Below are positions 28,597 through 30,030 of a DNA stretch of 46,722 nt, piece by piece (position 1 is the first letter of the stretch; every line of letters begins with the position of its first letter). Origin of the DNA: Candidatus Kaiserbacteria bacterium (GTDB lineage Bacteria; Patescibacteriota; Minisyncoccia; Phycocordibacterales; UBA2100); contig VGJQ01000004.1 of NCBI GenBank assembly GCA_016867375.1, positions 1 through 46,722 of the forward strand. The letters are read 5' to 3'. The position numbers were made by a program, and so were the translations under genes. Under the pieces are notes generated by a model, which was not told the origin of the DNA, searched no databases, and saw only the letters and a list, made by a program, of their open reading frames with translations.

Positions 28597-30030
28597 CTAG
28601 TGGCTAACGACTCCATCAATGCCGCCTTTCATGTAGAACGCGTGTTCGTCGTGCGCGTCGTGTTTGCCGTCGAGGATTTCGGCGAACGAGCGGACAGTGT
28701 CGGCAAGCGTGACGTATGAGCCCGGTGTGCCCGTAAATGCTTCGGCGACGGCAAACGGTTGCGAGAGGAAGCGTTGGATCTTGCGTGCGCGGTAGACTAT
28801 TCTTTTGTCTTCGTCCGAGAGTTCTTCGATGCCAAGAATCGCGATGATGTCTTGGAGGTCTTTGTAGCGCTGGAGCACGCGGCGCGTCTCGTTGGCGACG
28901 CGGTAGTGCTCACTGCCCACGATCTCAGGCGTAAGCGCGGTCGAGCCGGATTCGAGCGGGTCGATCGCTGGATAGATACCGAGTGATGCGAGTTGGCGCG
29001 AGAGCACGATGGTGGAATCGAGGTGTGCAAATGTGGTGGCAGGTGCCGGGTCGGTGAGGTCGTCGGCCGGCACGTAGATCGCCTGCACCGAGGTGATCGA
29101 GCCTTCGGTGGTCGAGGTAATGCGCTCTTGGAGATTGCCCATTTCTTCGGCCAGTGTCGGCTGGTATCCCACTGCCGACGGGACGCGCCCGAGGAGGGAG
29201 GAGACTTCGGAGCCTGCTTGCACGAAGCGAAAGACATTGTCCATGAAGAAGAGCACGTCTTTACCGCCTTCATCGCGGAACGCTTCGGCCATGGTGAGGC
29301 CGGAGAGCGCGACGCGTGCGCGCGCACCCGGCACTTCGTTCATTTGGCCGAAGACGAGTGCGGTCTTGTCGAGCACACCCGATTCTTTCATCTCGTGATA
29401 GAGGTCGTTGCCTTCGCGGACGCGCTCGCCGACACCGGCGAATACGGAGTAGCCGCCGTGTTCGGATGCCACATTATGAATAAGCTCTTGGATGAGGACG
29501 GTCTTGCCGACGCCTGCGCCGCCGAAGAGGCCGACTTTGCCGCCCTTGATGAATGGTGCGAGAAGATCGATCGCTTTGATGCCGGTCTCGAAGACTTCGG
29601 CCTTGGTCGACTGGTGCGCGAATGCAGGGGCTTCGCGATGGATGGGTAGGTGTTTGGTCCCCTTTTCGACAGGCTTGAGCCCATCGATCGGATCGCCGAT
29701 CACGTTGAACATGCGCCCGAGTGCCGCTTCACCGACGGGGACCATGATCGGCGCACCAGTGTCGGACACTTCTGTGCCTCGTGCGAGCCCTGCGGTGTCT
29801 TGCATGGCGATCGTGCGGACGCGATTGAGGCCGAGGTGTGCTGCTACTTCGAGGACGAGGCGATTTCCGGAGGTGACTCCTCCCGTGGAGGTGTCTCCTC
29901 CGGAAATCGCAACCTCCAATGCATTTTTAATCGCAGGGAGCTTCACGTTTCCGCCGAAGGCGGATCCGCCTTCGGCGGAGAAACGGACATCAACGACGGG
30001 ACCGATGATCTGTGTGATGGTGCCTTTCAT
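28597..30030 (-). CDS. atpD: ATP synthase F1 beta subunit
   Basis: [43 protein letters not shown]. Confidence 0.98.

Follow-up and report, generated by a model that had tools for sequence, protein, structure and literature searches.

Two palindromic inserts in the ATP synthase beta gene of a Candidatus Kaiserbacteria genome are probably copies of dispersed hairpin repeats

Introduction

In-frame palindromic repeats in genes are already known, from Rickettsia palindromic elements (RPEs) and from intragenic copies of repetitive extragenic palindromic (REP) sequences. RPEs are said, after Ogata et al. in 2000, to be inserted in frame in protein-coding genes, and RPE-1 is roughly 100–150 bp long. 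REPINs, which are REP doublets, reportedly occur together with a RAYT (REP-associated tyrosine transposase) or TnpA-REP transposase, as described by Bertels and Rainey in 2011, Nunvar in 2010 and Ton-Hoang in 2012. A separate route to DNA symmetry is quasipalindrome template-switch mutagenesis, in which, according to what is reported of Ripley's model and of work in E. coli, a hairpin acts as the template by which the flank of one arm is turned into the complement of the other's. Here we describe two palindromic inserts in atpD, the F1 ATP synthase beta gene of a Candidatus Kaiserbacteria bacterium, and compare them with these systems. The window, i.e. the whole stretch of DNA analyzed, comprises positions 1–46,722 of contig VGJQ01000004.1 (GCA_016867375.1); its source genome, G000, measures 1.008 Mb in 50 contigs with 53% GC.

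As outlined by Di Nocera et al. (2013, PMC3733652), who also describe RPEs, REP units measure 20–40 bp, and the intragenic GTAG- and CGTC-tagged REPs are mostly dimers that encode 20–30 residues, often in replication or repair genes; the CGTC class "apparently lack[s] a dedicated transposase". Quentin et al. (2018, PMC6006769), whose main text does not mention Parcubacteria or Patescibacteria, describe REPtrons as well as tnpA-REP genes that carry REP insertions. A third kind of coding palindrome, the PARCELs, is portrayed as 25-residue amphipathic palindromic coding repeats that form tandem arrays in open reading frames (ORFs) of unknown function and in surface proteins (PMC2996958). Literature searches on intragenic palindromes yielded REPs, RPEs and PARCELs and no account of such elements in the Candidate Phyla Radiation (CPR)/Patescibacteria, and the supplementary REP lists of PMC3733652 might hold similar units.

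Results

By domain content and by similarity to solved F1 beta chains, the gene that carries both inserts is that of the F1 ATP synthase beta subunit. Its product matches the Pfam domains ATP-synt_ab_N (PF02874, 2.5e-13) and ATP-synt_ab (PF00006, 4.9e-73) and a C-terminal domain (PF22919, 3.9e-16), and among solved structures its closest match is an F1 beta chain (8spv_D, E 1.5e-197, residues 2–475). A sequence-only reading of the window had reported two palindromes in this gene; both are present at the positions and with the sequences that it gave (Table 1), and its translations match the 479-residue minus-strand ORF exactly. Insert 1 consists of two abutting 15-nt hairpin units, TCCGCC-GAA-GGCGGA and TCCGCC-TTC-GGCGGA, each with a 6-bp stem and a 3-nt loop; its 15-nt arms (29950–29964 and 29965–29979) are 100% complementary with a spacer of 0 nt. 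Matches to the 15-mer at up to two mismatches numbered 6 in the window versus 0.23 expected, a count that 0 of 100 shuffles reached. As single-stranded DNA the 30-mer folds with −17.9 kcal/mol (z −5.96; 0/200 shuffles as good) into a single 13-bp stem with a loop, and a lone 15-nt unit attains −5.9 kcal/mol (DNA). The second inverted repeat has full arms of 31 nt (29853–29883 and 29887–29917), 84% complementary and 3 nt apart. Its perfect part is a 14-nt outer stem (GCGATTTCCGGAGG / CCTCCGGAAATCGC), and the repeat also has a pair of inner hairpins with 5-bp stems and 5-nt loops, 18 nt apart; the 51-mer folds as single-stranded DNA with −25 kcal/mol (z −10.7; 0/200 shuffles as good). An assembly artefact is contradicted by a 310-nt contig, obtained in another study from another sample, which covers 29725–30034 and with it both palindromes, with 0 differences and 0 gaps.

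Table 1. Positions of atpD, its two inserts and the insert-1-family copies in the window.
Feature	Coordinates	Strand	Basis
atpD, F1 ATP synthase beta, host of both inserts	28597–30036	-	intact 479-residue ORF, Pfam, PDB match
Insert 1, perfect 30-nt palindrome, encodes 10 residues (ORF residues 20–29)	29950–29979		arm complementarity, folding, codon alignment
Insert 2 with symmetrised flanks, 51-nt inverted repeat, encodes 17 residues	29860–29910		arm search, folding, 14-bp outer stem
Insert 2 core, 33 nt: GGAGG-TGACT-CCTCC, CGT, GGAGG-TGTCT-CCTCC	29869–29901		net +33 nt versus relatives
Insert 2, low-coordinate outer arm GCGATTTCC; downstream on the coding strand, GGA AAT CGC (Gly-Asn-Arg)	29860–29868		codon alignment, uniqueness scan
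Insert 2, high-coordinate outer arm GGAAATCGC; upstream on the coding strand, GCG ATT TCC (Ala-Ile-Ser)	29902–29910		codon alignment, uniqueness scan
Insert-1-family copy in gyrB-like gene, TCCTCC-GGA-GGAGGA + TCCGCC-TTT-GGCGGA, reads SAKGGSSSGG	12240–12269		unit scan
Insert-1-family doublet in tRNA-Glu-like pseudo copy; further single unit at 41700–41714	41628–41657		unit scan

Both inserts are specific to this lineage. In a codon-level alignment of the AtpD N-terminus with 22 relatives from the genus and order of G000, site 1 carries a clean addition of 30 nt between codons, immediately after a Phe codon, and site 2 a net addition of 33 nt ahead of an Arg codon, which lengthen AtpD by 10 and 11 residues, respectively. 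The wider comparison comprised 100 AtpD rows, among them G000 itself and, at least once, two rows from one genome (L003 = L036). Site 1 measures 3–4 residues in 89 of these rows and 13 in G000, site 2 measures 6–8 residues in 83 rows and 17 in G000, and neither insert sequence was found in the other 99 rows. Conservation in distant taxa without DNA symmetry, a pattern that would point away from insertion, was looked for; neither insert is conserved there and both are symmetric at the DNA level. The sites are indeed places where AtpD usually has short turns, as had been proposed. The accompanying suggestion of high insertion pressure stands in part. The two insertions are real, and site 1 exceeds 4 residues in 11 rows and site 2 exceeds 8 residues in 17 (G000 counted in both), so that 10 and 16 further rows, respectively, hold other inserts; given these, insertion pressure alone is half of the story, and the two loops are permissive sites as much as targets.

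At least three of the inserts in other rows have a DNA symmetry of their own. The atpD insert of G004 contains CCACC-GGAA-GGTGG, site 2 of G016 is occupied by a AAGGTCSGACCTT doublet from one of the RAYT-flanking families described below, and site 2 of G011, the closest relative of G000, holds a 12-bp hairpin. Only stems of at least 9 bp were interpreted in the AtpD N-termini, 7-bp stems being common by chance (40 of the 100 rows); even of 9-bp stems with gaps of up to 45 nt, about 3–4 are expected per 100 rows by arithmetic. A third insertion site, between the barrel and the nucleotide-binding domain at about residues 115–125, was seen as individual cases, outside any length tally over rows, in G001, G010 and G079 (L009, L023/L150, L148), where it holds a CGAGG...CCTCG hairpin doublet that reads PRGDTSKEESPR. 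In G011 a doublet lies inside the N-terminal barrel of ATP synthase alpha (G011:C1:59532–59561, L162).

Insert 1 belongs to a multi-copy family. G000 holds 20 units of the form TCCNCC-N3-GGNGGA at 10 loci, 9 of which are abutting doublets. The protein-gene hosts are gyrB, atpD, typA, rplC (ribosomal protein L3), topA and gltX, plus an integrase-like gene with a single unit; the remaining hosts are the transfer-messenger RNA (tmRNA) gene and two tRNA-Glu-like pseudo copies, both with the doublet at the anticodon-loop position. The placing of the 30-mer in a family shared with gyrB and a pseudo-tRNA was therefore correct (Table 1). The atpD 30-mer is identical at 30/30 positions to the copy in typA (G000:C5:31243). 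The insertions in rplC and typA, like that at site 1, are exactly 30 nt long and lie between codons; the orthologous site is empty in 16/16 aligned relatives for rplC and in 3/4 for typA, the fourth relative carrying a different 5-residue insert. Stem variants are paired on both sides (TCCTCC/GGAGGA, TCCACC/GGTGGA). With up to two mismatches, the doublet was present in 44 of 101 genus genomes (1–27 copies each) and in 72 of 201 class genomes, or 64 of 159 genera, with 1–21 copies outside G000 and 10 in G000; the reversed-pattern control gave 0 in every genus and class genome scanned. Among 151 sampled genomes of the phylum, at up to one mismatch, 7 carried the doublet, 5 of them outside the class and the other two being G000 and one class genome. 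In four metagenome runs, many contigs covered the 30-mer with flanks unrelated to atpD.

Several copies of this family lie in structured RNA genes. The tmRNA gene (G000:C20:11273–11691, L033 474–892; Rfam 109.9 bits) contains a TCCTCC/TCCGCC doublet at C20:11443–11472, within a 58-nt insertion relative to the Rfam model. On the minus strand at 41302–41735 of the window, a tRNA-Glu(CTC) (41302–41374) is followed by an 87-residue GIY-YIG-like ORF (41353–41616) and then by a tRNA-Glu-like pseudo copy (about 41620–41735), which has two hairpins in its D-loop region and the TCCNCC doublet at the anticodon-loop position. This arrangement recurs at G000:C8:2290–2630 without the ORF and in G065 (L174, G065:C9:1–800) with it, and has the look of a cassette at tRNA-Glu, either mobile or duplicated. 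A general link between GIY-YIG genes and doublets was discarded, as only one of four such genes in G000, that next to tRNA-Glu, adjoins a doublet. Phage carriage likewise found no support, the exact pattern occurring in 2 stretches only of a viral contig collection. The gene for ribosomal protein S10 in G065 is extended at its N-terminal end by a stretch that holds two doublets and a further unit (G065:C1:163–430, L173).

Units of this family keep a strict relation to the reading frame. All 12 units inside called G000 genes start on the first codon base (phase 0). Of the 26 sites in G011, 18 were fetched, and at 17 of these the longest open frame across the unit is a phase-0 frame, versus about one third by chance. 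In phase 0 the unit reads Ser-Ala-x-Gly-Gly (or Gly-Gly-x-Ser/Thr-Ser) whichever its orientation, because TCC/GGA and GCC/GGC are complementary codon pairs, and the insert lengths, being multiples of three, keep the downstream frame. The other phases would read Pro-Pro-x-Ala-Asp/Glu or Arg-Arg-Arg-Arg-Ile, and selection presumably eliminates copies with such Arg- or Pro-rich peptides. So strict a phase speaks for translation of the inserts, since it would not matter after removal from the RNA, and both inserts in atpD are probably translated and near-neutral. Hairpins encode 10 of the 21 S-A-x-G-G peptides in called G000 genes, compared with about 0.4% predicted as an arithmetic product of codon usage (TCC 0.18, GCC 0.27, GGC 0.42, GGA 0.18), which points to an origin of these hairpins at the DNA rather than the protein level.

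Insert 2, whose 33-nt core reads GGDTS-x-GGVTS, represents a second and rarer repeat family, GGAGG-N5-CCTCC as opposed to TCCGCC-N3-GGCGGA, in agreement with the earlier description of two different palindromes. That description holds for the core of the 51-nt repeat; the outer 9 nt on each side lie outside any family and look locally made from the host flank. Doublets of the insert-2 build, with 17–18-nt spacing, occur in ORFs of G065, G002, G079, G083 and G086; they read (S)GGDTS-x-GGVTS one way round and GGVSS-x-GGDSS the other. Among the 101 genus genomes, G000 alone matches the junction between outer stem and core exactly, and single one-sided matches with one mismatch in 6 genomes were similar to the reversed-pattern controls. 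The idea that insert 2 is a longer mobile unit was rejected on this 16-nt junction, scanned at up to one mismatch. Within the downstream arm, CGC aligns with the conserved Arg/Thr codon that precedes LVLEV, and the upstream arm stands in place of the usual Lys-His-Lys-type codons; most simply, one flank would have been overwritten with the reverse complement of its counterpart. At site 2 of G011, the hairpin has a 12-bp stem and a 1-nt loop, and one arm is CGG CTT GTT TTG (R-L-V-L). At site 2 of L100, a 10-bp stem with a 3-nt loop has as one arm the conserved LVL codons, CTG GTC TTG G. In all three lineages the signature looks like hairpin-templated strand switching. The same pattern of a core with unique paired flanks is seen in several copies of the RAYT-flanking palindromes of G000 (for example C6:38995–39043, C5:42433–42469 and C14:1310–1350), whose copy-specific paired outer extensions reach 8–14 bp past the conserved core.

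The position of the inserts in the fold was evaluated with an AlphaFold2 model of AtpD built on a 29-sequence alignment (mean predicted local distance difference test, pLDDT, 76.4). Predicted strands comprise model residues 12–17, 36–41 and 57–67. Insert 1 occupies model residues 18–27, the block 21–30 having a mean pLDDT of 56, and insert 2 occupies model residues 41–56, with pLDDT below 50 at residues 44–54. An alignment with the Bacillus PS3-type F1 beta chain leaves gaps of 9 residues at site 1 and 4 residues at site 2. Both inserts thus lie between strands of this predicted single chain, at a pLDDT of about 50–56, and are predicted to turn two short connections of the N-terminal barrel, beta2-beta3 and beta3-beta4 in the "crown" of F1, into longer, flexible loops. 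The loop position, as predicted for the single chain, is in line with the sequence-only reading, which expected surface loops on an F1 structure.

G000 is rich in hairpins and in candidate mobilizing enzymes. A census of perfect inverted repeats (stem of at least 10 bp, loop of up to 4 nt) counted 345, versus 5–6 in genomes simulated by a first-order Markov model, which is about 65 times the expectation. The Y1 transposase family PF01797 (RAYT-like) was searched in G000, G011, G065, G111, G001 and G002. G000 has 14 matches, 12 over the cut-off, in open frames of 226–276 residues, and each locus is flanked by its own family of 21–25-nt palindromes with a 1-nt loop; by sequence these loci have the classic REP-RAYT layout. 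Doublets from RAYT-flanking families also lie in frame in large genes, reading ARSDLA..QQGRTLL in UvrB-like and IF2-like genes and LEVRPP.GGLTSN in a LigA-like gene. One of them is in the window itself: a CAAGGTCSGACCTTG doublet at 18000–18039 reads QQGPTLLSSARSDLA in frame in a called gene of 288 residues (ORF 17455–18318, minus strand), and its family is also in frame in the UvrB-like, IF2-like, 741-residue and 1094-residue genes of G000. An ordinary REPtron was rejected as the source of the atpD inserts, each RAYT-like gene having its own, different hairpin family and none having TCCGCC units on both sides. Two of 30 RAYT-like loci fetched from G011, G065, G111 and G001 carry one TCCGCC doublet somewhere within.

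Around atpD, the atp operon of G000 is interrupted by a gene of 118 residues of the 23S rRNA-intervening-sequence protein family (PF05635) between atpD and atpG (30070–30426, minus strand), and an ORF of 135 residues without a Pfam match lies between atpG and atpA (31425–31832, minus strand). In another genome of the order, an AtpD match contains two in-frame TAG codons (G019:C1:30893–32260), for which recoding, a broken gene or a sequencing error are possible.

Discussion

The two palindromes described for atpD are confirmed, and the interpretation of them as insertions is supported. We consider it likely, with a probability of roughly 0.7, that both are copies of dispersed hairpin-forming repeats, REPIN-like doublets, which landed in atpD and are harmlessly translated. 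This reading is carried by the lineage specificity of the inserts, by the multi-copy and patchy families, by identical copies in unlinked genes, by the phase-0 rule and by positions in predicted loops. Small hairpin-doublet repeats would then spread within and between Paceibacteria genomes, and, by analogy with REP/REPIN and IS200/IS605, their copying may proceed via single-stranded hairpin DNA. One of the 14 Y1 (RAYT-like) transposases of G000 might act in trans, or the enzyme might be another one. Copies would persist in those genes that can accommodate a flexible Gly/Ser loop, and at site 2 hairpin-driven template switching after insertion may have copied the host GGA-AAT-CGC in inverted form to the other flank.

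A number of results weigh against dispersal of this kind. TCCGCC units flank none of the 14 RAYT-like loci of G000, neither atpD insert family flanks any RAYT-like gene of this genome, and none of the 30 RAYT-like loci fetched from four other genomes has TCCGCC units on both sides. The number of doublet copies does not track that of RAYT-like genes (26 copies with 4 matches in G011, 0 copies with 10 matches in G001). Neither a target-site duplication nor a clear target motif was seen at the three codon-aligned sites (atpD, rplC, typA), which leaves transposition itself a hypothesis; TTC precedes the element at these three sites and not in the other genic copies inspected, the sites being too few for a motif claim. 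The 33-nt core of insert 2 occurs only once in G000, and its family membership rests on 5–6 similar doublets; with reversed-pattern controls of up to 2 per genome in the corresponding search, this family is less securely defined than that of insert 1. The gene calls behind the phase counts in G000 are crude (home-made codon-score caller, 919 genes, 80.5% coding), and translation is something we infer rather than observe. Finally, near-identical 30-mers in 64 of 159 genera are unusual for a neutral selfish repeat and may reflect a host function or a sequence-specific process.

The inserts share features with each of the known coding palindromes and coincide with none. Like Rickettsia RPEs, they belong to dispersed palindromes that lie in frame in conserved, often essential genes of a small genome and are absent from the orthologues, as seen for atpD, rplC (16/16 empty) and typA (3/4 empty), and both kinds are presumably translated into loops, which in AtpD are predicted from a single-chain model and may lie at the surface. 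The likeness is one of description. Unlike RPEs, which reside in an alphaproteobacterium, the atpD elements measure 30–51 nt and have a CPR host, and units of the atpD type are made of complementary Ser/Ala and Gly codons, giving the same Gly/Ser-rich peptide both ways. As in REPs and REPINs, the units are short hairpins, dispersed in many copies (20 units at 10 loci), usually as inverted doublets (9 of 10 loci) and with several families per genome; the two atpD families also resemble the CGTC class in seemingly having no dedicated transposase. At 15 nt the unit is shorter than the 20–40 bp of REPs. In contrast to these, none of the 14 Y1 loci of G000 is flanked by the same repeat, the RAYT-flanking families of G000 being different sequences; neither a GTAG nor a CGTC tag was recognized by inspection in the TCCGCC-N3-GGCGGA unit or the listed flanks; and the elements are mostly genic (12 of 20 units in called genes of G000, and 17 of 18 fetched G011 sites in long open frames). 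Given the differences in cognate transposase, tag and location, we do not file them as REPs. PARCELs are similarly coding repeats with DNA dyad symmetry that apparently move between and within genomes, whereas the atpD inserts are Gly/Ser-rich, 10 and 11 residues long, and stand as single doublets in housekeeping enzymes. Compared with REPIN- and RPE-type elements, the 15-nt units, the orientation-independent Gly/Ser coding, the class-wide spread and the presence in structured RNA genes appear to be new.

The alternative that survives best, although we hold it unlikely, is that the palindromes were made in place, template switching or snap-back synthesis writing an inverted copy of the neighboring sequence and repeated rounds building up the symmetry. 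Such a process, akin to quasipalindrome template switching, would explain why the 9-nt outer arms of insert 2 are unique among the 101 genus genomes, one of them containing a conserved Arg codon, why the site-2 inserts of G011 and L100 are inverted copies of the adjacent conserved (R)LVL codons, and why several RAYT-flanking hairpins have copy-specific outer extensions of 8–14 bp. It perfects or extends imperfect palindromes, however, and leaves dispersed identical cores unexplained: the atpD and typA 30-mers agree at every position, the same 24 specified bases recur at 10 loci of G000 and in 72 of 201 class genomes, and the GGAGG-N5-CCTCC doublet reappears in unrelated ORFs of five other genomes. 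The flanks of TCCGCC doublets inspected by eye showed no long extension. The donor–recipient pairs with identical cores and unrelated flanks found here speak against local synthesis as the sole mechanism, and we retain it only as a probable secondary step on the flanks.

It is less probable still that the hairpins are kept for a role at the RNA or DNA level, for instance to make translation or transcription pause, to stabilise mRNA or to bind nucleoid proteins, compatibility with coding being a secondary constraint. In its 5′ part the atpD mRNA is predicted to form two long hairpins (−82.4 kcal/mol over 151 nt, z −7.5), the doublet sequence is conserved across the class with compensatory stem changes, and for many REPs a function as RNA elements is argued in the text of Di Nocera et al. 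(2013, PMC3733652). The positions, however, are scattered over unrelated genes, each specific to its species, and they showed no shared spacing from start codons or gene ends.

We regard it as more improbable again that the inserts are selected protein features, i.e. extended F1 beta crown loops with a function of their own, such as contact with the peripheral stalk, the host cell or a regulator, with incidental DNA symmetry. Both loops do vary in length across Patescibacteria (11 and 17 of 100 rows are long at sites 1 and 2), the solved Bacillus PS3-type beta chain is also longer at site 2, and the ORF is intact. Yet each insert occurs in 1 of 100 rows, the same type of decapeptide appears in GyrB, TypA, L3, TopA and GltX, the encoding of SAxGG by hairpins exceeds the codon-usage prediction more than 100 times, and the same DNA lies in tmRNA and in tRNA-like sequence, where no peptide is made. 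An assembly or amplification artefact, for instance a chimeric inverted duplication, is hardly conceivable: chimeric reads can yield perfect palindromes, and contigs in a possible source run do break at the 30-mer, but the independent contig spans both palindromes without a difference, the insert-1 family recurs in genomes that were assembled independently and in which the reversed pattern gave 0, and the ORF stays in frame.

Copies of dispersed repeats remain our preferred explanation, and a broader proposal can be attached to it, tentatively and as one that we think more likely wrong than right. Throughout the class, the TCCGCC-N3-GGCGGA doublet would be a mobile palindrome adapted to codons: made of complementary Ser/Ala and Gly codons, it would have specialised for life within the genes of gene-dense CPR genomes, either orientation giving a harmless flexible loop, and it would spread without a transposase of its own. 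Together with flank copying, whose signature is found at atpD site 2 in three lineages, it would act as a standing mutational engine that adds new loops to the essential proteins and the structured RNAs of Paceibacteria. The orientation-independent Gly/Ser design and the presence in 64 of 159 genera could make the persistence of a repeat without a dedicated transposase testable. Judged from sequence, the flank-copying hairpins at site 2 would document natural template-switch mutagenesis.

Although the genomes of CPR/Patescibacteria are very small and densely packed with genes, many of the excess hairpins of G000 lie inside essential genes. If the doublets are mobile and translated, they would keep introducing in-frame insertions into core machinery, including ATP synthase, gyrase, a ribosomal protein and tmRNA. 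They would confound the alignment-based phylogeny and the annotation of CPR marker genes, and the inserts would mark permissive loops of core machines.

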